A stretch of DNA of 64,000 bases from Escherichia coli (lineage in GTDB: Bacteria; Pseudomonadota; Gammaproteobacteria; Enterobacterales; Enterobacteriaceae). The stretch lies in NCBI RefSeq assembly GCF_965641715.1, contig NZ_OZ282453.1; one strand, written 5' to 3'. Positions 37,906 to 51,732 of the stretch are shown here, piece after piece (positions within the stretch are counted from its first letter, which is position 1; every line of letters starts with the position of its first letter). Position numbers and translations under genes: made by a program. The notes beneath the pieces were generated by a model, which was not told the DNA's origin, ran no database searches, and saw nothing but the letters and a program-made list of their open reading frames with translations.

Positions 37906-39132
37906 ATGGGAATTAACGAAATCATCATGTACATCATGATGTTCTTTATGCTGATAGCTGCCGTAGACAGGATCCTGTCGCAGTTCGGCGGTTCTGCTCG
38001 TTTCCTCGGTAAGTTCGGTAAAAGTATCGAAGGATCAGGCGGTCAGTTCGAAGAAGGCTTTATGGCAATGGGCGCACTGGGCCTGGCGATGGTCGGTATG
38101 ACCGCGCTGGCACCGGTACTGGCTCACGTTCTCGGGCCGGTAATTATTCCGGTTTACGAAATGCTCGGCGCTAACCCATCGATGTTCGCCGGAACACTGC
38201 TGGCGTGCGATATGGGCGGCTTCTTCCTCGCCAAAGAGCTGGCGGGCGGCGACGTAGCCGCGTGGCTATACTCTGGGTTAATTCTCGGGTCGATGATGGG
38301 GCCAACGATTGTGTTTTCCATTCCGGTGGCGCTCGGCATTATCGAACCTTCTGACCGTCGTTATCTGGCGCTCGGCGTGCTGGCGGGCATTGTGACCATT
38401 CCGATTGGTTGTATCGCTGGTGGTCTGGTTGCTATGTACTCCGGTGTTCAGATCAACGGCCAGCCGGTGGAATTCACTTTCGCCCTGATCCTGATGAACA
38501 TGATCCCGGTGATCATTGTTGCGATTCTGGTGGCGCTGGGGCTGAAATTCATCCCAGAAAAAATGATCAACGGCTTCCAGATCTTCGCCAAATTCCTCGT
38601 TGCATTGATCACCCTCGGTCTTGCCGCTGCGGTAGTGAAATTCCTGCTTGGCTGGGAACTGATCCCCGGTCTGGATCCTATCTTTATGGCCCCTGGCGAT
38701 AAACCCGGTGAGGTGATGCGCGCCATTGAAGTTATCGGTTCTATCTCCTGCGTTCTGTTAGGGGCGTATCCGATGGTGCTGCTGCTGACCCGCTGGTTTG
38801 AAAAACCGCTGATGAGCGTCGGTAAAGTGCTGAATATGAACAACATCGCGGCAGCCGGCATGGTGGCAACGCTTGCCAACAACATCCCGATGTTCGGCAT
38901 GATGAAGCAGATGGATACCCGCGGCAAAGTCATCAACTGCGCCTTCGCCGTTTCCGCTGCTTTCGCCCTGGGCGACCACTTAGGCTTCGCCGCTGCCAAC
39001 ATGAATGCCATGATCTTCCCGATGATTGTCGGCAAGTTGATCGGCGGCGTAACGGCGATTGGCGTGGCGATGATGCTGGTGCCAAAAGACGACGCGACCG
39101 CGGCTAAAACCGAAGCGGAGGCACAATCGTGA
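37906..39132 (+). CDS. eutH: Ethanolamine permease/facilitator EutH
   Basis: 408 aa, polytopic membrane protein. Confidence 0.94.
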   Translation: MGINEIIMYIMMFFMLIAAVDRILSQFGGSARFLGKFGKSIEGSGGQFEEGFMAMGALGLAMVGMTALAPVLAHVLGPVIIPVYEMLGANPSMFAGTLLACDMGGFFLAKELAGGDVAAWLYSGLILGSMMGPTIVFSIPVALGIIEPSDRRYLALGVLAGIVTIPIGCIAGGLVAMYSGVQINGQPVEFTFALILMNMIPVIIVAILVALGLKFIPEKMINGFQIFAKFLVALITLGLAAAVVKFLLGWELIPGLDPIFMAPGDKPGEVMRAIEVIGSISCVLLGAYPMVLLLTRWFEKPLMSVGKVLNMNNIAAAGMVATLANNIPMFGMMKQMDTRGKVINCAFAVSAAFALGDHLGFAAANMNAMIFPMIVGKLIGGVTAIGVAMMLVPKDDATAAKTEAEAQS

Positions 39133-40532
39133 ACACTCGCCAGCTACTGAGCGTCGGTATCGATATCGGCACCACCACCACCCAGGTGATTTTCTCCCAC
39201 CTGGAACTGGTTAACCGTGCGGCGGTGTCGCAGGTGCCGCGCTACGAATTCATCAAACGCGAAATTAGCTGGCAAAGCCCGGTGTTCTTTACCCCTGTCG
39301 ATAAACAGGGTGGTTTAAAAGAAGCGGAACTGAAATCGCTGATTTTAGAGCAATATCAGGCTGCGGGCATTGCGCCGGAAAGCGTTGATTCTGGTGCCAT
39401 CATCATCACCGGTGAAAGCGCGAAAACCCGCAATGCTCGCCCGGCGGTGATGGCGCTCTCTCAGTCGCTGGGCGATTTTGTCGTCGCCAGCGCCGGGCCG
39501 CACCTCGAATCCGTGATCGCCGGTCACGGTGCCGGGGCGCAAACCCTTTCTGAACAACGGCTGTGTCGGGTACTGAATATCGACATCGGCGGTGGCACCG
39601 CGAACTACGCCCTGTTCGATGCCGGAAAAATCAGCGGCACTGCCTGCCTCAACGTCGGTGGTCGCCTGCTGGAAACCGACAGCCAGGGGCGCGTGGTTTA
39701 CGCTCATAAACCGGGGCAGATGATTGTGGATGAGTGCTTCGGCGCAGGCACCGATGCCCGTTCGCTGACCGGCGCGCAGCTGGTGCAGGTTACCCGGCGG
39801 ATGGCAGAGCTGATTGTCGAAGTGATTGACGGAACGCTTTCGCCGCTCGCGCAGGCATTAATGCAAACCGGTTTGCTGCCCGCAGGTGTTACGCCCGAAA
39901 TCATTACGCTTTCTGGCGGCGTGGGCGAATGTTATCGCCACCAGCCCGCCGACCCGTTCTGTTTTGCCGATATTGGCCCGCTTCTGGCAACGGCGCTGCA
40001 TGACCATCCGCGCCTGCGTGAGATGAACGTGCAGTTTCCGGCGCAAACCGTGCGCGCCACGGTGATTGGTGCGGGTGCACATACCCTTTCGCTCTCTGGC
40101 AGCACAATCTGGCTGGAGGGCGTACAACTGCCGCTGCGCAATTTGCCGGTGGCGATCCCAATTGATGAAACGGATCTGGTGGGTGCCTGGCAACAGGCGC
40201 TGATTCAGCTGGATCTTGATCCCAAAACTGACGCGTACGTGCTGGCGCTTCCCGCCTCGCTGCCTGTGCGTTACGCCGCGGTACTGACGGTCATCAACGC
40301 GTTGGTCGATTTCGTCGCGCGTTTTCCGAATCCGAATCCCCTGCTGGTGGTGGCCGGGCAGGACTTTGGTAAAGCTCTGGGCATGTTGTTGCGCCCACAG
40401 CTACAACAACTCCCGTTGGCAGTCATTGACGAAGTGATTGTCCGCGCGGGGGACTATATCGACATTGGTACGCCTCTTTTTGGCGGATCGGTTGTGCCGG
40501 TGACGGTGAAATCACTCGCATTTCCTTCCTGA
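39129..40532 (+). CDS. eutA: Ethanolamine ammonia-lyase reactivase EutA
   Basis: 467 aa; the TGA stop (40530-40532) lies inside the att core of the island. Confidence 0.94.
   Translation: MNTRQLLSVGIDIGTTTTQVIFSHLELVNRAAVSQVPRYEFIKREISWQSPVFFTPVDKQGGLKEAELKSLILEQYQAAGIAPESVDSGAIIITGESAKTRNARPAVMALSQSLGDFVVASAGPHLESVIAGHGAGAQTLSEQRLCRVLNIDIGGGTANYALFDAGKISGTACLNVGGRLLETDSQGRVVYAHKPGQMIVDECFGAGTDARSLTGAQLVQVTRRMAELIVEVIDGTLSPLAQALMQTGLLPAGVTPEIITLSGGVGECYRHQPADPFCFADIGPLLATALHDHPRLREMNVQFPAQTVRATVIGAGAHTLSLSGSTIWLEGVQLPLRNLPVAIPIDETDLVGAWQQALIQLDLDPKTDAYVLALPASLPVRYAAVLTVINALVDFVARFPNPNPLLVVAGQDFGKALGMLLRPQLQQLPLAVIDEVIVRAGDYIDIGTPLFGGSVVPVTVKSLAFPS
40511..40532. repeat. attL (bacterial arm + 8-bp core CTTCCTGA)
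   Basis: atcactcgcatttccttcctga. The core at 40525-40532 is repeated at 51725-51732, and atcact is also shared. Confidence 0.7.
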
Positions 40533-40582
40533 ATACTGTAGTTATCAGGCGTGGCGCTGGGTGGCTGGGTGTTAGTGGGATT

Positions 40583-40602
40583 ATATCCGGCTGTGTATCC
40601 GG
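40583..40602. repeat. GTATCCGG-type repeats near attL (candidate integrase arm-type sites)
   Basis: atatccgg at 40583-40590 and gtatccgg at 40595-40602. Confidence 0.4.
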
Positions 40603-40626
40603 TCGGGGTGATTGGTCTGTATAGCA

Positions 40627-40648
40627 GAAAACCCGGCGCGGGGCCGGG
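40627..40648 (-). terminator. Rho-independent terminator after the Rha-like gene
   Basis: Minus strand reads cccggc-cccgc-gccggg followed by TTTTT. The hairpin is identical to the one at 42316-42337. Confidence 0.8.
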
Positions 40649-40655
40649 TGAACTA

Positions 40656-41216
40656 TCACTCAGGGAACAAGTTGATTTGAAGCAAACTGCCAATGTATTT
40701 ACCAGTGCTTTTAATTTTTCGCTTTGATGGCTTACACGAATTCAGGTTGACACCAGCCTGGCTAGATATTGGCTTGTATTGCCGCTCCGCCAGTACGATC
40801 AGGTCTGCCGCGTCTTTTAGCTTTCCATCGTTAGCCAGTTCCAATGCTCGATCCGCCATTTGCCCGCATTGTTGAATCAGCTTAAGTTGCGATACCTCCA
40901 GTCGCAATTGCTGGATTCGTTCTACCACTTTCGCCCTAATGCGCTTAGTTTCACGCATTCCCATTCTTAATGCCTGGTTGCCAGTAAGTGAGTAAACCTC
41001 TTTTTCTTTCCTGAAGTTTGCGGCTTTACCGTCAGCTTGGACGCGCATTTTATGCGCTTCCAAGAATTCGCCCTCCAATTCATCCCTGATCTTCGCGTTG
41101 AATCTGTCGTTCTTGAGTTCATTTAACCCTTCCGCCTTGCGGATCTGGTTGATTAACTCCAACAATTCATCACTGCGGATACGCCACTCGCTATCAACCT
41201 GTACCAAGTCAAACAT
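40656..41216 (-). CDS. Rha-like phage regulatory / antirepressor-like protein (186 aa)
   Basis: ORF track 40656-41309 begins at a TTG. I prefer the ATG at 41216 (MFDLVQVDSEWRIRSDELLELINQIRKAEG), which has a GGGAG RBS 7 nt upstream. The domain pattern resembles the Phage_pRha family; this is a memory-based judgement, not a search result. Confidence 0.6.
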   Translation of the reverse strand: MFDLVQVDSEWRIRSDELLELINQIRKAEGLNELKNDRFNAKIRDELEGEFLEAHKMRVQADGKAANFRKEKEVYSLTGNQALRMGMRETKRIRAKVVERIQQLRLEVSQLKLIQQCGQMADRALELANDGKLKDAADLIVLAERQYKPISSQAGVNLNSCKPSKRKIKSTGKYIGSLLQINLFPE

Positions 41217-41380
41217 GTTGTTGCTCCCGTTTTGCTGCCATAGGGCAACGGCTCGCCAGCCTTTATCACCTCCTTTAGTTGTTGCGATTCTTAACTGAAT
41301 GGTTATCAAAACGCTGCGTTAATATCATTGATATGTATCAAATTTGTTTTGTGACGCGACAATGCCTTGTGAATATCAAT

Positions 41381-41404
41381 AAAAAACCCAGCGCTATGGC
41401 TGGG
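41381..41404 (-). terminator. Terminator after the XRE-HTH gene
   Basis: Minus strand reads cccagc-catagc-gctggg followed by TTTTTT. Confidence 0.8.
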
Positions 41405-41437
41405 CTTCGTTTAATGAGATGGGATTGAAAGCGGGTT

Positions 41438-42220
41438 TTATTTATCTCCCAGATTGTATTCCCAGTTGGGAAGTAAAGTTATCAGCTTGTCACCTTTCTT
41501 GCCTTTGCCGATCTGGTTGCCGTTCTCGTCTTTCTTGTGTGTGATTTCCTGGTCAACCTTAATCAATCCTCTCTCTTTGGCTTGCTCAATCAGTCGGTAG
41601 AATGCGCCGTTACTAATCGGCTTCCGGTTACCGTCGTTATCCATCGCAGTGATTTTCTGTTGCAGTCCGGCGTTATTGCCCAGGTATTCGCCACCTAACG
41701 CCGCCAGTACCTGACACAACATGCCGACACTGTATTTTTTCGGATTTGGGTTAATCCATTCTTTAGCTCCCATCTCTTTTTTGTCGTTGGGCGCTTGTTC
41801 TGCTGCTACTGCGTTCACCTTTTCATCTCCCATCTTGTTACCGCTTGCTGTGCGCTTAATTTCTTCCAGTTCTCTCTCAAGCTCACCTATACGTAATTCA
41901 CGCTCGATAATTACCCCGCGCAGCACATCATCATCACCGTGAGGGCTTGCCTGAATCCAGTTACCATTGGCGAGCGGTAGGAGGGCATAAATTCCGAACA
42001 GGTCACAAAGCGCGGCAAGTGTATTAAAATCAGGTTCCCGGCGTCCCTCCATCCAGTGGCTAACAGCGCCTTTTGTGACTGGTTCGCCTTTCTTGCTTTT
42101 AACACCCATGCGATCCAGTGCGGCGGCTATCTCTTCGCATTTAATGCCACGACCGCCAGCATAGCCCGCCGCTTTCGCGGCCCCTTTGAGGATGTCGTGA
42201 ATTTTCATTTCGTAACTCAT
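41438..42220 (-). CDS. XRE/cI-type HTH protein with coiled-coil linker and C-terminal putative winged-helix domain (260 aa)
   Basis: ORF 41438-42235. Start moved to MSYEMKIHDILKGAAKAAG, where the GGGAGA RBS is 8 nt upstream. The segment GIKCEEIAAALDRMGV...TKGAVSHWMEGRREPDFNTLAALCDLFG matches the HTH_XRE pattern. Confidence 0.7.
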   Translation of the reverse strand: MSYEMKIHDILKGAAKAAGYAGGRGIKCEEIAAALDRMGVKSKKGEPVTKGAVSHWMEGRREPDFNTLAALCDLFGIYALLPLANGNWIQASPHGDDDVLRGVIIERELRIGELERELEEIKRTASGNKMGDEKVNAVAAEQAPNDKKEMGAKEWINPNPKKYSVGMLCQVLAALGGEYLGNNAGLQQKITAMDNDGNRKPISNGAFYRLIEQAKERGLIKVDQEITHKKDENGNQIGKGKKGDKLITLLPNWEYNLGDK

Positions 42221-42230
42221 AATTTTATCT

Positions 42231-42258
42231 CCCATCTCATGAACTATGGTGGGAGATT
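42231..42258. promoter_or_regulatory. 28-bp box copy 1 (CCCATCTCAT-N9-TGGGAGATT), overlapping the RBS of the HTH gene
   Basis: Near-identical box at 42939-42966. ATCTCCCA (42227-42234) and TGGGAGAT (42250-42257) form a perfect 8-bp inverted repeat. Confidence 0.5.
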
Positions 42259-42315
42259 AACACGGCGGGCCTGTGGCGGGTAAGTGTAACGGGAGAGAAT
42301 GTTGATTCAGGTCAC

Positions 42316-42337
42316 AAAAACCCGGCGCGGGGCCGGG
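42316..42337 (-). terminator. Terminator after the 158-aa gene
   Basis: aaaaacccggcgcggggccggg is identical over 21 nt to the terminator at 40628-40648. Confidence 0.8.
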
Positions 42338-42359
42338 CTGTGTTAGTACGTCGTTGCTC

Positions 42360-42836
42360 TTAGTTCATGAGGAGATCTTTAAATTCGACGCCGTATTCAT
42401 GGGCAATGTCGCCTCTATAGTAGATGTTATCTTTCAGGATATATCCGACGTTTCTCAGGACGTGAGAACACTCTCTTACTGCTGCCTCTTTACCCCTTAA
42501 AACATCCTCCCCGCTAACTTCTTCGCCGCTGTACTTCACTGCGATGTTGTCTGCTGCACGCTCTGCTGCTTCCAGGCAATTAATCTTCACTTTTCCCCGA
42601 TTCTCCCAGGCAAAATCGCGGCCATAAATCCCCATTGCATCAACCATCTTTTGCGCAGTAGTGCGCTCATCCACCCATTCAGTGCGTTCGAACTTCTCGC
42701 CAGCAGCTACCCTTGCCGCCAGTTGTTCGTGTTGAGTCTGTACGGCCGCAGCCTCTTCTTCCCATTTGCCTTGCTCGTTGTATACGATGAAGCCAGTGAT
42801 GACTGCAGCGATTAGTAACTTGTCCAGAAAATTCAT
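42360..42836 (-). CDS. Membrane-anchored (N-terminal TM) protein of unknown function, 158 aa
   Basis: Strong RBS AGGAGGA 6 nt before the ATG. MNFLDKLLIAAVITGFIVY signal-anchor, then a soluble domain with two Cys. Confidence 0.7.
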   Translation of the reverse strand: MNFLDKLLIAAVITGFIVYNEQGKWEEEAAAVQTQHEQLAARVAAGEKFERTEWVDERTTAQKMVDAMGIYGRDFAWENRGKVKINCLEAAERAADNIAVKYSGEEVSGEDVLRGKEAAVRECSHVLRNVGYILKDNIYYRGDIAHEYGVEFKDLLMN

Positions 42837-42938
42837 AGCTTCCTCCTATCTGTTCAATTACCCGGCATCTCTTGCCGTTGAACGTATTAAACAAAATGCC
42901 AGTCAGGGATAAAGCGATCTGCGTCATAAAGTCCATCC

Positions 42939-42966
42939 CCCATCTCATTGATATTGATGGGAGATT
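42939..42966. promoter_or_regulatory. 28-bp box copy 2, about 100 nt upstream of the 158-aa gene
   Basis: CCCATCTCAT-tgatattga-TGGGAGATT. On the minus strand it overlaps a candidate promoter, CTGACC-N18-CAATAT. Confidence 0.45.
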
Positions 42967-43041
42967 GTTTAATTGGTCAGAAATTAAGCGTTTATGTGCG
43001 CTGCCGGGTATCCACCTCCTATCTGAAGATGGAAAGATGGG

Positions 43042-43123
43042 TGATATAATGTGATGGCAATTGGTGGATTGCGTGGTTTTTACAATGATAAGGGGCTGGC
43101 GTAATGCTGGCCCCTTTGTTTAT
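43042..43123 (+). ncRNA. Candidate ~65-nt plus-strand sRNA (promoter through terminator)
   Basis: Perfect extended -10 TGaTATAAT at 43042-43050. First hairpin gcaat-N6-attgc at 43057-43072. An 11-bp terminator stem at 43090-43116 has two G-U pairs, so it only folds well on the plus-strand RNA. It is followed by TTTGTTTAT. Confidence 0.4.
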
Positions 43124-43162
43124 CCGGTATCCGGTATCCGGTATAAGCGGGCGTGTATCCGG
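43120..43162. repeat. Internal cluster of TATCCGG/GTATCCGG repeats
   Basis: tTATCCGGTATCCGGTATCCGG (three tandem 7-mers) plus gtatccgg at 43155-43162. The segment cgtgtatccggtagcgggga resembles ctgtgtatccggtcggggtga at the left end. Confidence 0.6.
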
Positions 43163-43356
43163 TAGCGGGGATATGGGCGCGTGTACGTGAAATCTGGCAA
43201 ATTAGCAGGGTAATTGTGAGGGAATTTTTGCGTAGGAGCGTTTGTGGCTGGTAGCTCAAAATTGAGCTTTGCTTTTCATTCAATGACTTAGGTTAATTCT
43301 AGCAAAACGCTAGGATTGAATGTCCGCCAGTCTGCTTCCCCTAGCGTGGGATTTGG

Positions 43357-45723
43357 TCAACGTCTGCGCGGCTGCAAAATTCCTCCGGGTCGTTGTGATT
43401 CACGCTGCATCAGTCGCATCGCTGTGTTTTCTATGGTCTGCTGCAGCGCTTTTGAGTCTTCCTCTGTCCAGCCGTTGTTAGCCTGGATGTTGAACGTATT
43501 GTTCATCGTGATTCCGCCACCGCCTACCAGATCGCGGCCCGGTGTAACTCGTCCACCTTCACCCGGGATCATGTACTGTTTCCCGCCAGTGGATGTAAAT
43601 AGCTCCGGTACTCCGTGCTCCCCGACCCTATAAAGATTGCCACCGTTAACAGCCCCGCCGTTGTAACGAGCGCCAGCCAGTCCAAGCGTTTTGGCGGCAG
43701 CTACGCCAGTAGTAAGCCCGGTAAGTCCAGTGGCCCCAGCGCCGCCCATCGTGGCTACGTTAGCCAGGTATGCAGGAGTGGCCCACGCCGATCCTAATGC
43801 TGTAGCCTCTGCTAGTGCTTTAGCTGTTGCGGCTGCGTTTGCGGCTTCACCAATTAGCTGCTGTTTAACCCACTCAGCACCCATCTGGACAATGCCACCG
43901 ACCACAGAAGACAGGATCGTACTGCCAACGTTGGCAAGTGACTCTTGCAGCGATTGAGTACCGTTTATCAGTCCGGTAAATGCGCTGCCAGCGCCAGACG
44001 ATAACCCATCGACCATATTCCCGATGAGGCCATTTATATCGCTTTGTTTCTTCCACTGCTGCCACTGGAGATCCAGAACCCTTTGTTCATGTGCGATCTC
44101 TTCCTGGCGCAACTGCTCTTCGGTAGCCCCAAGATCTAGAAGCATTTGCTTGCGAACAGCCCATTCATTTTGGATCTTCTGTATTGGGTCAATCTGAGCT
44201 TTCTGCTTATCCTGCTCACTGACAAGACTGTCCCATTTCGCTTTCTGCTTGCGGATGGCTTCAGCTTCATCAATTGCTGCGAGTGTACTTGCTCGCTGTT
44301 TCGCGCTGATCAACCGTTTCTGCTCAGCCGCTTCCAGGTCTTCTACTGCTTTTTTCCGTTTATTGAGCGCCGCTAGTTCGGGATCGTATTTTTCCACCAA
44401 TGAAAGGCCGCTTGCTTCCTTACGTTCGCGTTCTCTTTGTGCCTGTTTGGCTGCCTGCTTAGCGGCGTTTTCTGCTTGTTTGGCTGCTCTTTCTTTCGCC
44501 CTGGTGTTCTCTTCTTCCTTGCGCTTATTCTCTTCTAACTCCTTGTTTTGTTCGCGTAATTTAACGATTTCCTCATGATGCGCCTTTGTCAGCTGGCCTT
44601 CTTTCAGTGCCCGATCTATATCAGCGTTTGCGTTGCCTTTTAGCTGTTCCTGTTTAACTTGCAGATGTTTAATCATCATTTCGCCAGTGGCAATCGCTGC
44701 CGCAGACGCTCCAGCATTCAGAGCTTCATTTAACGCTCTCTGACGTTCTTCTGCTGTTAATGCCTCGTTGCTGTATCGAAGTAGCGCATCAACGTATTTC
44801 TCCAGTTCTGCGCGGCCTGCCGCAGTTGCTGGTTCCATTGCTTTTAGGATGCTCAGAAGGCTTTGCGCTTCATAGGAAGACGGGTTTTTGCGGAACTGCG
44901 CCATAGCGTTATAAAGCGCCATAGCTTCACCCTCTGTGATTCTGTACTTAGCTCCCAGCCCTTCAATGACCGCTGATAACTGTTTGCCAAGCGCTGCACC
45001 GAATGCGCCTTCCTTGCTTAATTTGTTGAGCACTTCACTCAGTGAATTTCCTGACACGCCCAGCGCGTCGAGTTCTCTTGCTACCGTTCCCAGGTCGCCG
45101 CCTTTCATCCATCCTGCATTAGAAAATTCAGTGATAGCCCGGCCCGCTTCCCGCGTTTCTTCCTGGAGTGTTTTTAGCGCCCGCACGGCCTGCTCTTTCA
45201 TTACGGCGGCGGCAATGGCGTTGTTCTGTGTGGCTTCGTAATATGAATCACTGAAAGCGTTAACGCCCTGGGTGGATTTGCCGATCACGGCGTCGATTGA
45301 TGCTAATGCCTCCTTCATCCTTTCAGCGCTATCCGTTGCGTCGTCCATGCTGTCCGTTAGGCTGTTGGCAATCGCCCCGCCAATAGCCATCACCGCCCCC
45401 ATGACCGCACCGCCAGTACCGAAGGCAGCGGCAAGTTGTGCACCCTGCACAGCGAACGCCTGGAGCGCATTACCGCCCATCTGCAATTGAGTGGCAAGGT
45501 CTGCGATCTGGTATGATGCGTTACGGATTGCCGGGGAAAGGTTGGTTTTGACTGCGGCAGACGTTTTGGTCATCTGCGTGTTCAGTTTTTTGACGCCACT
45601 GTCAGCGCGTTTTGCGCCGCGTTCTATACTGTCAAAAGCCTGGTCCGCTTCTTGTTGTGCTGCCAGGAGTTTACCAGTACGGGCGTCGACCTCATAGTAT
45701 ATGGTCCCAAGATTCCCACTCAT
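43357..45723 (-). CDS. Phage tail tape-measure protein, lambda gpH-like, 788 aa, apparently full length
   Basis: The N-terminal YQIADLATQLQMGG segment, the long E/K/A/Q coiled-coil core, and the Gly-rich hydrophobic C-terminal region ending GG..YRVGEHGVPELF ... NNTFNIQANNG match my memory of gpH domain order. Confidence 0.8.
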   Translation of the reverse strand: MSGNLGTIYYEVDARTGKLLAAQQEADQAFDSIERGAKRADSGVKKLNTQMTKTSAAVKTNLSPAIRNASYQIADLATQLQMGGNALQAFAVQGAQLAAAFGTGGAVMGAVMAIGGAIANSLTDSMDDATDSAERMKEALASIDAVIGKSTQGVNAFSDSYYEATQNNAIAAAVMKEQAVRALKTLQEETREAGRAITEFSNAGWMKGGDLGTVARELDALGVSGNSLSEVLNKLSKEGAFGAALGKQLSAVIEGLGAKYRITEGEAMALYNAMAQFRKNPSSYEAQSLLSILKAMEPATAAGRAELEKYVDALLRYSNEALTAEERQRALNEALNAGASAAAIATGEMMIKHLQVKQEQLKGNANADIDRALKEGQLTKAHHEEIVKLREQNKELEENKRKEEENTRAKERAAKQAENAAKQAAKQAQRERERKEASGLSLVEKYDPELAALNKRKKAVEDLEAAEQKRLISAKQRASTLAAIDEAEAIRKQKAKWDSLVSEQDKQKAQIDPIQKIQNEWAVRKQMLLDLGATEEQLRQEEIAHEQRVLDLQWQQWKKQSDINGLIGNMVDGLSSGAGSAFTGLINGTQSLQESLANVGSTILSSVVGGIVQMGAEWVKQQLIGEAANAAATAKALAEATALGSAWATPAYLANVATMGGAGATGLTGLTTGVAAAKTLGLAGARYNGGAVNGGNLYRVGEHGVPELFTSTGGKQYMIPGEGGRVTPGRDLVGGGGITMNNTFNIQANNGWTEEDSKALQQTIENTAMRLMQRESQRPGGILQPRRR

Positions 45724-46012
45724 AATATCTTTATCCGCGTTGTGCGGACACCTCCGATTATTCTTTACTCTAATAATTTCACAATGAAACAGTTTATTGC
45801 CGCTTCAGTGGCTTCGTGTTCCGGTTTGCTTCGATCAATCACAAAAAATACAGCTTAATAGAATCAATGGCTTATAAAGTTGTATTAGCTATGTTTCTTC
45901 GTCCGTGCCACTGAAAACCCAGTTTTTCCAATGGAATCAATACTGATATGTATCCATACTGTTTTTCACATAATGTACGTTATGCGCACTACGGGAAACG
46001 TACTGAATTTAT

Positions 46013-46243
46013 TTACTGGTCGCCGTTCAGTTCATGCAGAGTCTGTTCTGGCAATGAATCCAGCCAGTTTTCTGCATCCTCCCTGTAACACTCCAGGATG
46101 CAACGGTTTGTGAAGTTGATGAAAGCGGTCAGTGATTCTGCTTCGTCGTTCCTGTGCGTTCTCCTGGCGTGCTTGCGTAGTCGTTTCGCGTCTGCCAGTT
46201 GGTCATTGAGTATCTTCAGTCTGTCGGCAATATCATCGTTCAT
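46013..46243 (-). CDS. Hypothetical 76-aa helical protein
   Basis: GGGAGAG RBS 5 nt upstream of the ATG; protein-like charged helical composition; no family recognised. Confidence 0.55.
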   Translation of the reverse strand: MNDDIADRLKILNDQLADAKRLRKHARRTHRNDEAESLTAFINFTNRCILECYREDAENWLDSLPEQTLHELNGDQ

Positions 46244-46378
46244 GTCGTCTCTCCCTCGCGCGCGCGTCGTACTTGTCCGAAAATTACCCCCATAAAAGCG
46301 CCCCTCATATAGTGCAAAATCCCGGCTGACGCGGATCTCAGTGGGTTTTAGCAGTGAAAACTGACATCAAAAACGGCT

Positions 46379-46426
46379 CGCTAAGGTCCGCTAAGTATCC
46401 GCTATCGTTCGCTAACCCCCCGCTAA
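46379..46426. repeat. Five phased CGCTAA (minus strand TTAGCG) direct repeats
   Basis: Copies start at 46379, 46389, 46400 (CGCTAT), 46410 and 46421. The spacings of 10, 11, 10 and 11 bp equal one helical turn. Confidence 0.85.
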
Positions 46427-46430
46427 CCTA

Positions 46431-46796
46431 TTAGATATCGCATCCAACGCTATTGAGCTGGCTATGTATATCGGCGCGAATTAACTTCAGGCGTTTACAA
46501 AATTCGCGTTCTTCCGAATTAAGCTCGCGGCCACCTTGTTTCGAGGCAATGAGCTTGTTGATGGTGGAAAGCGAATATTCACTCCATATACGAAGCATTT
46601 GTCGCTTCATTGGTTGCTCGCTCAATGGTGAGTTTTTCAGGTCTGACACGCGCTCTGCGACGGTTCTTGCGATGCCTTGTACCACTCGTAGTGCCAACAT
46701 GATGATTTTCTCCGGACTTGTGCTAATATAGTTCCCGAACATTGTTTCGAGACTGCTTATCCTGTTTGTCTTGTCCGATTTGTTCATTGGTCGCAT
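46431..46796 (-). CDS. Hypothetical 121-aa protein
   Basis: ORF with protein-like composition (…IIMLALRVVQGIARTVAERVSDL…) but no obvious SD. A hairpin lies just upstream, and the stop abuts the CGCTAA array. Confidence 0.5.
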   Translation of the reverse strand: MRPMNKSDKTNRISSLETMFGNYISTSPEKIIMLALRVVQGIARTVAERVSDLKNSPLSEQPMKRQMLRIWSEYSLSTINKLIASKQGGRELNSEEREFCKRLKLIRADIHSQLNSVGCDI

Positions 46797-46838
46797 TGTT
46801 AAGTCAGCCGGGGTAATTCCCGGCTTTCTTTTATCCGA

Positions 46839-47381
46839 TCAGTACCGAATCCCTATCGCATTGAATACGCGTTTCCGTTGCTCAGCTTCAGGATCGGCGG
46901 CCATTTCTGGTTCTGGCTCCGGCATAGACGGGGCGGCATCAAAATGCTCAATTTCACGACCGAAATACGAGTTCAGGTCAATACCTGCCGAACTATCCAC
47001 TCCATCAAAATAGCGACGCTGTTCCTCGGTGAGACAGCTACCCAGACGTTCCTCAACCTGCGCCATAAACTCAGCATCCGGTGAGAAGTACTCATCCGGA
47101 GTCGGAGCACCGCTCTGTTTGTGCATCTCCATTTTCTCTGCGTTCGTTTTCAGCCCGGCAATGCGTTTCTCCAGTCCGGCGGCTTTAATAGCGTCAGCAA
47201 CGATTTGTGGGATCTGCGGTTTAATTATTTCGATAACTTCATTGCTGATTAATTTAAACTGGGCCATACGGATCGCTTTAATCTGCTTATTTAACAGTGC
47301 GCGTTCCCCTTCGTTGGCGGTTTTATCACGCTGTGCTACCAGTTCATCGCCTTTGTTTGTCAGTACATCAAATGCGTCCAT
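46839..47381 (-). CDS. Hypothetical 180-aa protein with acidic, Pro-rich C-terminal part
   Basis: Strong RBS GGAGGAGG; starts 17 nt after the stop of the 108-aa ORF. Confidence 0.65.
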   Translation of the reverse strand: MDAFDVLTNKGDELVAQRDKTANEGERALLNKQIKAIRMAQFKLISNEVIEIIKPQIPQIVADAIKAAGLEKRIAGLKTNAEKMEMHKQSGAPTPDEYFSPDAEFMAQVEERLGSCLTEEQRRYFDGVDSSAGIDLNSYFGREIEHFDAAPSMPEPEPEMAADPEAEQRKRVFNAIGIRY

Positions 47382-47398
47382 TGTCTTTCCTCCTCCGA

Positions 47399-47725
47399 TT
47401 ATTTAAAAGTGCTTATTGACACGCCGAAACGACGACTTAATTCAAAAAGGAGTCGCGCCTTTGCAGTGCCTTCCATGTCTTCCGGCATTTCAGACTGAAG
47501 TTTATCAGCTACTTCATCAACAAGTGGCCGAACCGTTTCCACGAACTTGTCCGCAATATAATCAGCAGAACGCATCACTTTTTCCTGGAATTCCTCACGG
47601 CGTACCTGGGCGGCTGATTTAGGGGCTGTCGTGCGCTGAAAATAACTGTCTAATGAATGCATGGCATCTGCTCCTTTTACTTTGATTGCTGTTATTTCTT
47701 TAATTGTGTTTGCTTTGATTTTCAT
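47399..47725 (-). CDS. Hypothetical 108-aa protein
   Basis: AAGGA RBS; first gene downstream of alpA in the same orientation. Confidence 0.55.
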   Translation of the reverse strand: MKIKANTIKEITAIKVKGADAMHSLDSYFQRTTAPKSAAQVRREEFQEKVMRSADYIADKFVETVRPLVDEVADKLQSEMPEDMEGTAKARLLFELSRRFGVSISTFK

Positions 47726-47801
47726 GCTGCCTATTCCTTCAGAAATTGCGGTAGTTTGCTTTTTAAATCAATAAGTTATTTGATAATCTCAGTAGCTGTT
47801 T

Positions 47802-47993
47802 TCATTGGTGGCGAGCGCCTTTGTTTTTATAGAATTCCAAAATCTCAGATCGGATAAACTTAATTCTTGAGCCAATCGGACTGACCGGGACGGGCCAGCC
47901 TTTAATCTTGTTCATCCACCGGAATATTGTCCGACGGGTAACGCCGAATAAAGCTGCTACCTCGTTAACCGTCATTAATTCGCTATCATTCAT
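47802..47993 (-). CDS. AlpA-family (Phage_AlpA/HTH_17) transcriptional regulator / excisionase-like protein, 63 aa
   Basis: LMTVNEVAALFGVTRRTIFRWMNKIKGWPVPVSPIGSRIKFIRSEILEF is the typical AlpA/MerR-like HTH. GAGGTGAG RBS. Confidence 0.85.
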   Translation of the reverse strand: MNDSELMTVNEVAALFGVTRRTIFRWMNKIKGWPVPVSPIGSRIKFIRSEILEFYKNKGARHQ

Positions 47994-47996
47994 GTT

Positions 47997-48046
47997 CTCA
48001 CCTCAAAAAGTAGCGGTGAGGAAAATATGGAGAAAACCCTCACCGC
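47997..48046 (-). promoter_or_regulatory. Terminator-like leader hairpin immediately upstream of alpA; one arm duplicates the SD
   Basis: mRNA sense: GCGGTGAGG-N16-CCTCACCGC (9-bp perfect stem), then UACUUUUU, then GAGGUGAG (SD), then AAC-AUG. The 3' arm can also pair with the SD (CUCACC/GGUGAG). Confidence 0.55.
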
Positions 48047-48090
48047 GCCCTGAATGAAATTAAAGACCAACATTACTGTTGATACTTATT

Positions 48091-48096
48091 ATTATA
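48091..48096 (-). promoter_or_regulatory. Candidate -10 (perfect TATAAT) for the alpA operon
   Basis: Minus strand reads ggaaTATAATaa, about 95 nt upstream of the alpA ATG. The -35 is weak (ATGTGA). Confidence 0.3.
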
Positions 48097-48185
48097 TTCC
48101 TCCTGTCCCTGTTTCACATCTTTTACCATATAGTGAAAGGGGATATTCTGTAATGTTTACAAAACTTTTAATTAGCAAAAAATAA

Positions 48186-48306
48186 TTGCGCATCTCACGT
48201 AATGCAGGGATAATATTACTCAAGGGCTGGTTGCCCTTACTCAAAATGTGATCTATAACTACAACGATCTATTTCACTTCCCCGCTTTCTCCGGCGGGAT
48301 TTTTTT
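48186..48306 (+). ncRNA. Candidate ~85-nt plus-strand sRNA (promoter through terminator)
   Basis: TTGCGC-N17-GATAAT at 48186-48214. 5' hairpin aagggc-tggtt-gccctt at 48222-48238. 3' hairpin cccgc-N8-gcggg followed by a run of seven T at 48300-48306. Confidence 0.3.
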
Positions 48307-49118
48307 GCCTGCAATCTGGCACCATTGCGCACATTAAAATTAGATGCCATTTAAAAGCGATATAACGCGTTCTGCCGGGCTTAATTTTGGCTATCCACTT
48401 GGAAGGGTAAGCCTGTTTTGATTCGTCTGGCGTGGAATGGTGCGGCGGTAATATCAGATCTCAGCGTTCTGCGTGGTGGGATGAAATAGCCTGGCAGGAT
48501 TTGCGTGTGGTTTGCTCTCCCAAAAAATGGGGTAATGGCGCTGGCTGGATGGCAGGACTCCGCGCTGATTACTGGATGGCTGAAAATTTAATGAAATCGC
48601 ATCAATTTTAATGCGTCTAAATCGCTCTGTGGCGACGTGAAGTTTTCAGGTAAGCAAGTGTAGCTGTGTGGTGTGTTCATCGCGTTACTGGCACCATTCC
48701 GTTCGAATTTGGCGCTATCAGGATGGTTTGCGGTGGTCGGCGGCGGGGATAAACTTGCTTGAGTGGTCACCTCAGCCTGCTGTGCGTCGTGTGATGGTAC
48801 TGTCTGCACCTGGCTATACGCTGCTTTGCTGCTGTTTCCTGTCTGGTCTGTATACGCGATAAAACCCATCGGCTTTACAGTGAGTGAGTTTTTTGCGCTT
48901 TGCTTTCCATTCGGTTTGCTTACTGCTGCTGTGTGTCTGTGCGGTAGCTCAGAAAGCTGTCGATGATAACCATCACTGCCAGACCGTCTTTTGAGCTGGC
49001 GATTGCTCGAAGTCTTCCGAAGGTCCGCTGGGCTTGTTGCTTGTTTGTGTTCTTTTAAAATGCGCGCCTCTTACTTTCTCTTAAAAAGAAAAAAGGAATA
49101 TACAGATCTCATACTATG

Positions 49119-49273
49119 TGTGTCCCAAATGTCACACGTCATGGCCTGACCTGTATCCCAAATGTCACACGTCACCCTCTGACCTGTATCCCAAATGTCA
49201 CACGTACCTGTGTCCCAAATGTCACACGTCTATTGTTAATTAATTGTTGACCTGTGTCTCAAATGTCACACGT
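49119..49273. repeat. Five direct 21-bp iterons TGTRTCCCAAATGTCACACGT (putative ori)
   Basis: Copies at 49119-49139, 49152-49172, 49185-49205, 49209-49229 and 49253-49273 (one mismatch). Start spacings are 33, 33, 24 and 44 bp. Four copies are preceded by (G)ACCTG. An AT-rich tract with AGATCT lies at 49081-49110. Confidence 0.85.
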
Positions 49274-49290
49274 CTGTTGATGGTTTAAGT

Positions 49291-49320
49291 AATAAAAAGG
49301 GCCACCATTTTAGGTGACCC
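49291..49320 (-). terminator. Terminator after the Rep-like gene
   Basis: Minus strand reads gggtcacc-taaaat-ggtggccc followed by TTTTTATT. Confidence 0.7.
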
Positions 49321-49338
49321 ATTGATGCGTTTTAGTCG

Positions 49339-50103
49339 TTATCTTGCGTTCTCGACCTGAAAAAGCATTCTGTATTTTCTTGCGTGCTGACCAATAACAT
49401 ATTCCCCGTATGGCTCAATGAGTCCTAACTCAACCAGGATTTTCATCTGGCGAATTACGGTGCGGCGATTCATGCCCCATTCATCAGCTATTTTTGCCTG
49501 GCAAACTTCAGATACATAAGATCCATCATTCTGCTTTCTTGCTGCTGATGCAATGCTGGATAATACGCTCCAGGCTGTAGCTTTAGCTTTATTCTCGCAA
49601 CCACTTCTGACAAATGCCTTACGTGCCGCACCCAAACAGACATAACTGCAATAAATTCCTTTTTCTTCCGTTTGGTATTGTGTCTCTTTATCCTGCATGG
49701 CTTCCGGTTCTTCCGGCGCTTCCTGCTGTGGTGCTGTCTGCGAAGTTTTAGCGGCCATACTGCGTAGCTCGTTCACGATATCAGTAGCTGATTTCTTCTC
49801 GCTTTTAGTTTCCTGCGTGACTGATAAATACTCACCTTGTAACGCCAGGAAGTCAGCGCGGGCGTTTGCCTGGCTTTGTTCTGGTGATTCAGGTTCTGCA
49901 TCGGCAGGTGATGAAATCGGTGATACACGCGCCCAGCCTGTTTTGGCGTTGCATTCCCAGCGATAACCATTAAAGCGGATATCATTCAGGCCATCATCAA
50001 TGGCGCTCCGTACTTCTTCCGGGATCGCGTCGATTTTCTGAAGGCTGTGTTTACCGAGTGATTCGCCTTGCCGTGGGGCGTAGGCGGTTGGTAAAATATT
50101 CAT
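49339..50103 (-). CDS. Putative iteron-binding replication initiator / winged-helix DNA-binding protein, 254 aa
   Basis: AAGGAGAA RBS. The C-terminal segment IADEWGMNRRTVIRQMKILVELGLIEP is a wHTH-like motif. A long acidic Q/E/P-rich linker is present. The gene is directly followed by a terminator and the iteron array. No primase or helicase motifs. Confidence 0.55.
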   Translation of the reverse strand: MNILPTAYAPRQGESLGKHSLQKIDAIPEEVRSAIDDGLNDIRFNGYRWECNAKTGWARVSPISSPADAEPESPEQSQANARADFLALQGEYLSVTQETKSEKKSATDIVNELRSMAAKTSQTAPQQEAPEEPEAMQDKETQYQTEEKGIYCSYVCLGAARKAFVRSGCENKAKATAWSVLSSIASAARKQNDGSYVSEVCQAKIADEWGMNRRTVIRQMKILVELGLIEPYGEYVIGQHARKYRMLFQVENAR

Positions 50104-50173
50104 GTGGGATTTCTCCTTTTTACTTGTTTCCCATATCGCCCGGATTGGTTAGCGGCCTTCCGGGCTTTTTGTT
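50068..50173 (+). ncRNA. Candidate countertranscript (antisense) RNA to the rep leader, ~70 nt, with its promoter
   Basis: TTGCCG-N18-TGgTAAAAT (extended -10) at 50068-50097 places the TSS near 50104, abutting the rep ATG. The transcript is complementary to the rep SD (ttctcctt at 50111-50118). It ends at hairpin gcccgga-N14-tccgggc followed by TTTTTGTT (50138-50173). Confidence 0.5.
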
Positions 50174-50317
50174 GCGTTGATCCTATTTTCGATCCCCGGA
50201 TTTTTTATTACAAACTTGGCTTAATCATTGATTTTATTGGTATAGCTGTATAAAAGGATAACAGGATAAAAGGGTGATAGATTGTGTAACCTGTTAACCT
50301 TTTATACCAGTAAGGCG

Positions 50318-50341
50318 AAAGAAAAGCCGGACGAATCCGGC
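50318..50341 (-). terminator. Terminator after the integrase gene
   Basis: Minus strand reads gccgga-ttcg-tccggc followed by TTTTCTTTC. Confidence 0.75.
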
Positions 50342-50349
50342 CTTATAGT

Positions 50350-51555
50350 TCACGGCTCCAGCGGATTACCGCCACCAGCCAATATCTGGTCGATGGCGTC
50401 GCTGTAGTCCTGCATCATGGCCCGCCGTTGCTTCAGATAGGCCGCCTGGTTATAAACGCCGCGCACACCTTTCGGAACGTGGGCCAGTTGGATTTCGATC
50501 CAGTCTGGTGAGTATCTGCCGTACTCGTTAAGTGCGGTTGAAAAGGTGGTTCGCCAGCCGTGACCAGTGGCTATCGACTTGTATCCGATACGCTCCAGGG
50601 CTTTAAGGATGGCACTGGCTGAAAGTGGCTTATCCATGAATCGACCAGGGAACACAAAAGCACTGTATCCGCTGCGGGTAAACTGGTCCTGTAATAGCTC
50701 GACCGCCTGCCGGGATAGCGGGACCACATGCGGGCGGCGGGCCTTCATGACTTCAGCGGGTAGGGTGATGGTTGCCGATTCCAGATCTACCCACTCCCAG
50801 CGCATTAAACGCAGTTCTGCGGTCCTTAGGGCGCTTAATATAAGCAAACGTATTGCCGTCTGAATCTGAACGCTCCCGGCTCTCTCAAGGGCTTTGTAGA
50901 AGGCCGGGATTTCGTTAATTTGTATCCATGCGTTATGGCCTGGGCGTCGGGCTTTCAATGCCGTGTCCAGATCTGCAACCGGATTTCGGTTAACCAGTTC
51001 AGTGATAACGGCAAATTTGAAGATTTCCCCTATACGCTGCCGTAATTTTCGGGCCTGTTCCGGCGCGGTGCGCTCTTTCTTCTGAAGCAATGCCAGCACG
51101 TCACGGGCCGTTATATCGACAATCGACCGCTTGCCAAGTACCGGATAAACATCTTTCTCCAGTGCCGATCTAACTTGTTTCGTGTAAGACTCAGACCAAC
51201 CGCTCACTCTGGTAGCAAACCAGTCTTCCGCTACCGTCTTAAAACTTGCCGCCATGTTGAGCGCATCAATGGCTTTCTCCTTGCGCGCTTCTTCCATTGG
51301 GTCAATTCCCTGGGCGATGAGTAAACGGCTCTCTGTGGCGCGTTTACGTGCTTCCTTCAAGGTAATCAGCGGATATACCCCAATAGCCTGTAACCGCTCT
51401 TTCTTGTCTATCCAGTACCGGAATCGCCAGTATTTGCTGCCATTGGGATGTACCAGCAAGAACAGGCCAGGTGTCTGTGAATCGGTGAGTTTGTAGGGCT
51501 TGTCCTTCGGCTGGGCGGCCTCTATGCCCTTTGCTGTCAGTGGTGTCTTGCTCAA
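50350..51555 (-). CDS. P4-family tyrosine integrase (N-terminal arm-binding DUF4102-type domain), 401 aa; occupies the position of K-12 intZ
   Basis: TTG start with a GAGGT RBS. KPYKLTDSQTPGLFLLVHPNGSKYWRFRY is the typical P4-integrase N-terminus. C-terminal catalytic residues are present: ...HGWRTTFST...LAHV...GVYNQAAY. Confidence 0.9.
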   Translation of the reverse strand: MSKTPLTAKGIEAAQPKDKPYKLTDSQTPGLFLLVHPNGSKYWRFRYWIDKKERLQAIGVYPLITLKEARKRATESRLLIAQGIDPMEEARKEKAIDALNMAASFKTVAEDWFATRVSGWSESYTKQVRSALEKDVYPVLGKRSIVDITARDVLALLQKKERTAPEQARKLRQRIGEIFKFAVITELVNRNPVADLDTALKARRPGHNAWIQINEIPAFYKALERAGSVQIQTAIRLLILSALRTAELRLMRWEWVDLESATITLPAEVMKARRPHVVPLSRQAVELLQDQFTRSGYSAFVFPGRFMDKPLSASAILKALERIGYKSIATGHGWRTTFSTALNEYGRYSPDWIEIQLAHVPKGVRGVYNQAAYLKQRRAMMQDYSDAIDQILAGGGNPLEP

Positions 51556-51557
51556 AA

Positions 51558-51604
51558 CCGGATACCTCGATCTAACGACTCGATAACCCCGCTCATGTAT
51601 CCGT
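51558..51604. repeat. GTATCCGG-type motifs near attR (candidate arm-type sites)
   Basis: ccggatac (inverted) at 51558-51565, overlapping the int RBS, and gtatccgt at 51597-51604. Confidence 0.35.
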
Positions 51605-51717
51605 CGCGTTCGGTTGCGTTCGGCAGGATAAGTAACGGGCGTATTAAGTGGAACACCTTACAGGACAAGGGATAACGATGAAATAGAATTGTTCGAATGC
51701 TGTGAAAAATGTTACTC

Positions 51718-51732
51718 ATCACTTCTTCCTGA
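51718..51732. repeat. attR (element-borne imperfect copy of the eutA 3' end)
   Basis: atcacttcttcctga, followed directly by gggaacgacttATG of eutB, the expected uninterrupted eutA-eutB junction. Confidence 0.7.

Follow-up and report, generated by a model that had tools for sequence, protein, structure and literature searches.

The DNA analysed here, referred to as the window, is a 64,000-nucleotide stretch of an Escherichia coli chromosome bearing an island of approximately 11 kb between eutA and eutB, which is the CPZ-55 site. In an intergenic region of this island an extended -10 promoter element is closely followed by a terminator-like hairpin, and the question raised by the locus is whether the two form a gene and, if so, of what kind. 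Judged from conservation at the sequence level, the unit is probably a constitutive small non-coding RNA gene which is convergent with the core operon of the island.

The island between eutA and eutB

The features which define the island are as follows.

39129-40532, plus strand: eutA
40534-51727: the island, with all genes on the minus strand
within the island, minus strand: intZ
47802-47993, minus strand: gene for an AlpA-like protein of 63 amino acids (assigned from sequence)
49119-49285, directly downstream of the rep-like gene: iterons, five direct repeats of TGTRTCYCAAATGTCACACGT
49339-50103, minus strand: gene for a rep-like HTH protein
from 51744, plus strand: eutB

The remainder of the island consists, in order, of small genes without family matches, the tape-measure gene, the intergenic region under study and three cargo genes. 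The tape-measure homologue is full-length (788 amino acids) and matched PHROG 1538 at E = 8e-112, and no virion structural family was matched by the other island ORFs screened. The layout of intZ, rep-like gene with iterons, AlpA-like HTH gene, small genes and tape-measure gene is satellite-like; the loci considered with the window in this respect were L001-L005 and L019-L043. The iteron array at 49119-49285 is probably the replication origin of the island. The direct repeat CTTCCTGA, found at 40526-40533 (the eutA end) and at ~51718-51727 (before eutB), is probably the att core, and eutA appears to have received a substitute 3' end from the island.

Promoter and terminator signals in the window

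The unit was first described in an earlier note as a compact plus-strand transcription unit of ~65 nt without an ORF, and comprises the following elements.

43023-43028, plus strand: putative weak -35-like element CTGAAG (3/6 positions matching TTGACA), with a 16-nt spacer to the -10
43042-43050, plus strand: extended -10 element TGATATAAT, read directly (hexamer TATAAT at 43045-43050)
43057-43123, plus strand: predicted non-coding RNA of ~67 nt, both ends predicted, the start lying ~6-8 nt past the -10
43057-43072, plus strand: 5' hairpin GCAAUU/GAUUGC of the long form (sequence and fold)
43063-43076, plus strand: degenerate leader copy GGTGGATTGCGTGG, aligned by eye to GCGGGGATTGTGAGG
43090-43116, plus strand: intrinsic-terminator stem-loop of stem class 2 (GGGGCUGGC), from terminator scan and fold
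43115-43123, plus strand: U-tract UUUGUUUAU, whose 3' end overlaps the first TATCCGG repeat

The signals named in the earlier note were recovered at the positions it gave. The extended -10 is an exact match to TGnTATAAT and the only one in the window. The small hairpin said to lie shortly after it is formed by GCAAT (43057-43061) and ATTGC (43068-43072), separated by 6 nt, and is followed by GUGG and by UUUUU at 43077-43081. The second stem pairs AAGGGGCTGGC (43090-43100) with GCTGGCCCCTT (43106-43116) around the loop GTAAT, giving 11 bp of which nine are Watson-Crick and two are the G-U pairs described; it folds better on the plus strand (-18.9 kcal/mol) than on the minus strand (-13.9 kcal/mol). 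A terminator scan reported the same plus-strand site with 12 pairs (7 G-C), a 3-nt loop and the tail TGTTTAT, compared with 11 pairs and a 5-nt loop by reading and folding, and the G+C-rich stem, short loop and 3' U-tract on the transcribed strand which characterise an intrinsic terminator are all present. The tail overlaps the first TATCCGG repeat at 43121, in agreement with the claim that the unit ends where these repeats begin. When folded as a whole, the 70 nt from 43056 to 43125 formed two hairpins (-25.4 kcal/mol, z = -2.6).

The unit holds no conserved ORF and the ORF list of the window has no minus-strand ORF overlapping 43057-43123; the mechanical list does include a 34-codon ORF with a TTG start at 43061-43165. 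This ORF reads through the terminator, no Shine-Dalgarno-like sequence was seen ahead of it, and it is not alignable in K-12-type copies, which miss much of the window leader.

The motifs of the window are not significant when taken alone, as TGNTATAAT occurs once in 64 kb against 1.1 occurrences expected and terminator-like sites in the 2 kb scanned are at the level of shuffled sequence. The significance of the unit derives from its conservation in relatives and not from the motifs by themselves. These chance levels are what would be expected if an AT-rich hexamer merely happened to lie near a stable hairpin without any function, an explanation which we regard as very improbable given that the combination recurs over diverged islands and plasmids with structured variation.

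Relatives of the unit in islands and plasmids

Absence of the promoter-terminator pair from related islands was named in the earlier note as counting against its proposal; the pair was instead found in approximately 20 sequence variants of the unit, located in E. coli islands, in CPZ-55 of K-12 (the yffP-yffQ spacer) and in two plasmids of 8-9 kb. The variants were recovered from E. coli genomes and metagenome contigs and comprise 15 distinct K-12-type sequences, the window type and a truncated type at locus L004. Four features are kept among them: the -10 hexamer, a variable discriminator, a conserved G/U-rich leader, and a hairpin which changes in sequence and has TTTGTTT after it. With the 83-nt K-12 unit as query, the unit was found in 271 of 5426 complete E. 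coli genomes, each time as a single chromosomal copy, and the intergenic region of the window had a high-identity match in 46 complete E. coli genomes.

In K-12 MG1655 the unit lies together with an adjacent conserved block between yffP and yffQ, where the tape-measure gene is deleted; K-12 CPZ-55 is a member of the island family which has lost that gene. The predicted K-12 RNA corresponds to the complement of NC_000913.3 2563241-2563294. The unit is not annotated in the K-12 features of this spacer. The two plasmids, pRHB34-C15_2 (L047, CP057168.1, 9003 bp, circular) and L048 (NZ_CP062859.1, 8009 bp), have HTH, HNH and yffO/yffP-like genes in common with the island, as well as its conserved block and its RNA-like unit; in them a serine recombinase takes the place of the integrase and tape-measure gene. 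Their order is block, serine recombinase gene, unit on the opposite strand, and cargo. As island genes and unit are shared with plasmids, the element family is both integrated and episomal, and with its diverged tape-measure proteins and its plasmid relatives it may be more unusual than the unit itself.

Tape-measure proteins are 33-75% identical between islands while the adjoining unit is ~90% identical, which argues for constraint on the unit. Nor are the copies merely recent DNA identical by descent, since stems have been replaced and upstream contexts differ (see below). Apart from the number of TATCCGG copies, five window-type strains do not differ between -20 and the end of the block; their other differences lie upstream, and so they provide no test of covariation. 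Partial losses were seen in cargo-less islands, the leader being missing from L004 and the hairpin from L002 and L036.

A phage database searched with the 83-nt K-12 unit and with the window unit plus block gave no match, so that a helper-phage cos-type site or a phage origin of the unit is unsupported. A 16-mer scan of IMG/VR for the promoter returned chance matches only, a protein-seeded scan of species-representative genomes gave one unrelated locus among the matches listed, and none of the analysis results linked the island to lambdoid phages.

Conservation of the predicted promoter

Of the 15 distinct relatives, 13 have TATAAT as the -10 hexamer, while TATAGT occurs once and L040 has TGTAGT; the two plasmids have TAAAAT and TGCTATAAT. 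The hexamer is kept across six non-homologous, barely alignable upstream contexts, several of which have a weak xTGAAA -35-like element at the position of CTGAAG in the window. The six bases which follow the hexamer, the discriminator, are variable, and the 14 bases after these (GCGGGGATTGTGAG) are near-invariant. A kept hexamer, a free discriminator and a kept transcript start form the pattern expected of a working promoter with a functional 5' end.

A promoter scan requiring a -35 did not call the site at 43042-43050. Shimada et al. 2014 reported a SELEX peak for the sigma-70 holoenzyme in the yffP-yffQ spacer of K-12, obtained in vitro at spacer resolution, with its direction towards yffQ assumed from gene orientation and hexamers assigned as CTCACA-16-TATCAC. 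This assignment is the reverse complement of GTGATA...TGTGAG in the unit. The peak indicates that polymerase binds within the K-12 spacer, and the strand is not told by it. We infer that the promoter of the window is a sigma-70 promoter, dependent on the extended -10 with a weak -35, which starts near 43057 in vivo.

Strand-specific conservation of the hairpin

In all 17 hairpin versions compared the plus strand folds better than the minus strand, by 4.5-14.7 kcal/mol. Each version has 2-4 G-U pairs, which are A-C mismatches on the other strand, and the differences among versions are G-U-compatible solely on the plus strand. The 17 versions fall into two unrelated stem classes, GGCC(C/U)GGGUAG... 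(class 1) and GGGGCUGGC... (class 2), the second of which stands in place of the whole first stem and, like it, pairs properly on the plus strand only. Class 2 was found in the window, in L021, L032 and L037, and in plasmid L048, with 3-4 G-U pairs in those four relatives.

When 13 class-1 copies were aligned, the proportion of paired cells was 98.3%; one-sided variation through G-U was seen in seven pairs and a compensatory double change from CG to GC in one, while shifting the partner by one column reduced pairing to 52-65%. The shuffle control was exceeded moderately (27/500), as most columns are conserved, and the strand asymmetry is the stronger argument for the hairpin. Every island variant compared has TTTGTTT or TTTATTTTT directly after the stem; the tail of plasmid L048 is weaker (TTTGTGG), that of the window (UUUGUUUAU) is interrupted by a G, and that of K-12 is UUUAUUUUU.

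At the level of aligned sequence, these comparisons show that plus-strand-specific selection acts on the hairpin. The kept -10, the pairing confined to the plus strand and the polymerase binding in vitro in the K-12 spacer together support the original proposal of a plus-strand transcription unit.

Selection on the hairpin might also be read as selection on a plus-strand terminator only, which would act as an insulator by stopping antisense transcription into the tape-measure gene and core operon; the source of this transcription would be the host eut operon or promoters in the cargo region, the hexamer would be of minor importance and the short RNA a by-product. Since all island genes lie on the minus strand and eutA and eutB on the plus strand, host eut transcription does enter the island antisense, the plus-strand-only hairpin is kept in the cargo-less L004, which lacks the leader, and a second plus-strand terminator-like hairpin occurs at 43253-43268. 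An insulator would leave unexplained, however, why the -10 hexamer stands at a fixed distance in six contexts, why the 14-nt leader is near-invariant although the discriminator and the stem on either side of it vary, and why small plasmids, into which no eut transcription reads, retain the unit, and we consider it a possible but clearly less likely explanation than an RNA gene.

The leader and the adjacent block

The conserved G/U-rich leader of the unit family is GGGGAUUGUGAGG. In the short form, to which most copies belong, the RNA would open at this segment and continue into the terminator, with a length of ~54 nt in K-12, where the unit folds at -27.8 kcal/mol (z = -4.5). The long form, found in the window and in pRHB34-C15_2, has a longer leader beginning GUGA(U/A)GGCAAU... 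and a 5' hairpin of 6 bp, the 3' arm of which belongs to the conserved segment. This hairpin is GCAAUU/GAUUGC in the window and GCAAUC/GAUUGU in the plasmid, both changes being pair-preserving, and it is missing from short-form copies such as that of K-12. A unit for which the long form of ~67 nt is expected lies in ATCC 8739 at NC_010468.1 1349807-1349888 (plus strand). The conserved segment is degenerate in the window (GGUGGAUUGCGUGG), matching the family leader at ~10/15 positions in an alignment by eye, and the 5' hairpin takes up part of it. A covariance model based on the other copies returned that of the window as its best match there, a weak one (15.4 bits, E ~0.05). The segment GCAAUUGGU may resemble part of GcvB, a likeness on which no conclusion here draws.

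Just past the terminator lies a second conserved element.

43176-43251, no strand assigned: conserved non-coding block GGCGCGTGTACGTGAAATC...GCGTAGGAGCG

The block (75-115 nt) had a match in 300 of the 5426 complete E. coli genomes, exists in 20 sequence variants, is present in both plasmids and is far better conserved than the neighbouring tape-measure gene; no phage match was found for it. RNAalifold gave no conserved structure for its minus strand and a marginal one for its plus strand (-3.4 kcal/mol). A role for the block as replication origin is unlikely, the five iterons at 49119-49285 instead adjoining the rep-like gene. Within the block lies a paralogue of the leader, in direct repeat (GCAGGGTAATTGTGAGGGA).

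This repeat bears on the possibility that the leader is a DNA site, either an operator or a recombination or boundary site for an island protein, with its second copy in the block and with the promoter-like and terminator-like features secondary. The leader GCGGGGATTGTGAG recurs in the block as GCAGGGTA(A/G)TTGTGAGGGA and AGCGGGGAT recurs ahead of the block, different cargo modules and inserts join precisely around the unit, and the block lacks conserved RNA structure, all of which speaks for a DNA site. The spacing of the two copies, on the other hand, varies from ~84 bp to ~270 bp or more, with a whole recombinase gene between them in the plasmids, and the hairpin is conserved at the RNA level in a strand-specific manner, which a DNA site leaves unaccounted for. 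A DNA site in place of an RNA gene is accordingly rated as doubtful.

The hairpin at 43253-43268, which separates the block from the stop codon of the tape-measure gene, consists of AGCTCAAAATTGAGCT followed by TTGCTTTTCA; no plus-strand gene lies nearby. The TATCCGG array between terminator and block (43121-43162) has 3.4 tandem copies at 43121-43144 and a fourth unit at 43156, lies outside the RNA and varies in copy number between strains. K-12-type copies lack it, the terminator there lying directly against the block.

The proposed RNA and known systems

According to the RNA gene reading, transcription would proceed from the extended -10 TGATATAAT, begin near 43057, pass through the 5' hairpin and a short U-rich linker into a strong intrinsic terminator and end near 43120-43123, yielding an RNA of ~67 nt. 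The unit of the window would be a long-form, partly degenerate member of a module conserved in CPZ-55-type islands and small plasmids, located at the distal end of the core operon and convergent to it, with variable cargo genes behind the module promoter. In most members the RNA would present the single-stranded G/U-rich GGGGAUUGUGAGG at its 5' end, followed by the terminator, an arrangement typical of regulatory RNAs that act by base pairing. Such an RNA may act by pairing through its leader, either with a target in trans or in cis with read-through transcripts of the tape-measure operon; read-through is plausible as the hairpin, when folded, is a poor terminator on the minus strand.

Several known systems share parts of this arrangement. 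Lambda OOP and P22 Sar are cis-antisense RNAs which overlap the coding regions of cII and ant, respectively. Like these, the unit would produce an RNA of ~70 nt from its own promoter, ending at an intrinsic terminator and directed against the main transcription of the element, but it has no sequence or Rfam similarity to them and overlaps no ORF, and would thus be antisense only to read-through RNA. Trans-acting small RNAs of islands and prophages include DicF, IsrK, the EHEC anti-sRNAs AgvB and AsxR, and the Spr RNAs of staphylococcal islands. The likeness to these lies in a stand-alone promoter-to-terminator gene in acquired DNA, with a conserved single-stranded segment preceding the terminator hairpin; the unit differs in its interrupted U-tail, Hfq-dependent small RNAs having a long uninterrupted one, and in having no Rfam match above chance. 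The unit is unannotated in K-12 and missing from Rfam, while island- and prophage-encoded small RNAs as such are a known kind.

Divergent antitoxin small RNAs of type I systems are known from IstR-1/tisB, OrzO/zorO and OhsC/shoB. Similarly, the unit of K-12, and that of several relatives, diverges from an operon which opens with a hydrophobic ORF of 20 amino acids (MKRWEV...), but its 5' part pairs with the cargo leader no better than shuffled sequences and the window cargo is without the small ORF. At five loci the duplex energy with the adjacent cargo leader did not exceed the mean of the shuffles, on which ground a role as type I antitoxin was dismissed despite the hydrophobic ORF in K-12 and others.

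At lambda PR'-6S RNA-tR', Q overrides the terminator and thereby allows expression of the late genes which lie downstream on that strand. A constitutive promoter closely before a terminator and a short RNA are common to both systems; in the window, by contrast, nothing is encoded downstream of the unit on the plus strand, and a PR'/tR'-like start of a late operon was therefore discarded. A phage moron (promoter, gene and terminator) was also rejected, since the only ORF between promoter and terminator is the non-conserved 34-codon TTG ORF, which overruns the terminator.

Rfam 15 gave no match at gathering thresholds in the whole window, and a permissive search with the window unit and its K-12 homologue returned terminator-like matches only, at 13-17 bits against thresholds of 45-92. 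When the 5' part of the RNA was searched against both strands of the window and the K-12 islands, the self-antisense site and the paralogous segment of the block were the only sites found. The searchable parts of the supplements of Adams 2021, Kim 2012, Shinhara 2011, Yan 2018 and Bar 2021 contain no transcript and no 5' or 3' end at the K-12 homologue, the supplement portions searched hold no TSS entry there, and the searched portions of the RIL-seq-derived tables hold nothing at the unit locus.

If transcribed, the unit would be an unannotated small RNA of E. coli K-12 itself, in the yffP-yffQ spacer of CPZ-55, and would mark a conserved boundary module of a poorly understood family of mobile elements; its practical value is modest absent a target. 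A bolder and improbable extension is that elements resembling phage satellites form a class not yet described, for which the unit supplies the regulatory RNA, and that its leader targets an mRNA of a helper phage or of the host, or else governs read-through into the cargo. Members of such a class would possess an integrase or serine recombinase, a Rep protein and iterons, an AlpA-like regulator, in many cases an HNH endonuclease, and a tape-measure gene which is hypervariable, and would take the form of eutA/eutB islands and plasmids of 8-9 kb. Were this so, CPZ-55 of K-12 would have an overlooked working copy.

Other features of the island

TATCCGG is over-represented in the window, with 18 copies against 5.7 expected, and clusters at 40584-40602, 43121-43162 and 51558-51564 (minus strand), that is, near both ends of the island and beside the terminator. 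These clusters may be arm-type sites of the integrase.

The cargo promoter region (~42912-42933) contains a CRP-like site, TATGAcgcagaTCGCT, on the minus strand, with a K-12 counterpart at NC_000913.3 2563427. The homologous site upstream of yffQ is listed as CRP-bound in vitro by Footprint-seq (preprint PMC12871828) and genomic SELEX (PMC3105977).

The 20-amino-acid hydrophobic ORF (MKRWEVALLVMVMLVCCIEL in K-12) is preceded by a Shine-Dalgarno-like sequence and heads many cargo operons; it is missing from the K-12 feature table of that region.

L005 7661-7723, minus strand: 20-amino-acid hydrophobic ORF, found in K-12 upstream of yffQ and also in L034, L035, L041 and L042

Finally, the segment 48253-48870, which has no convincing ORF, showed 80-84% DNA identity to positions 2323-3191 of plasmid L047, upstream of the HTH gene of that plasmid, and may be a regulatory region common to the island and L047.
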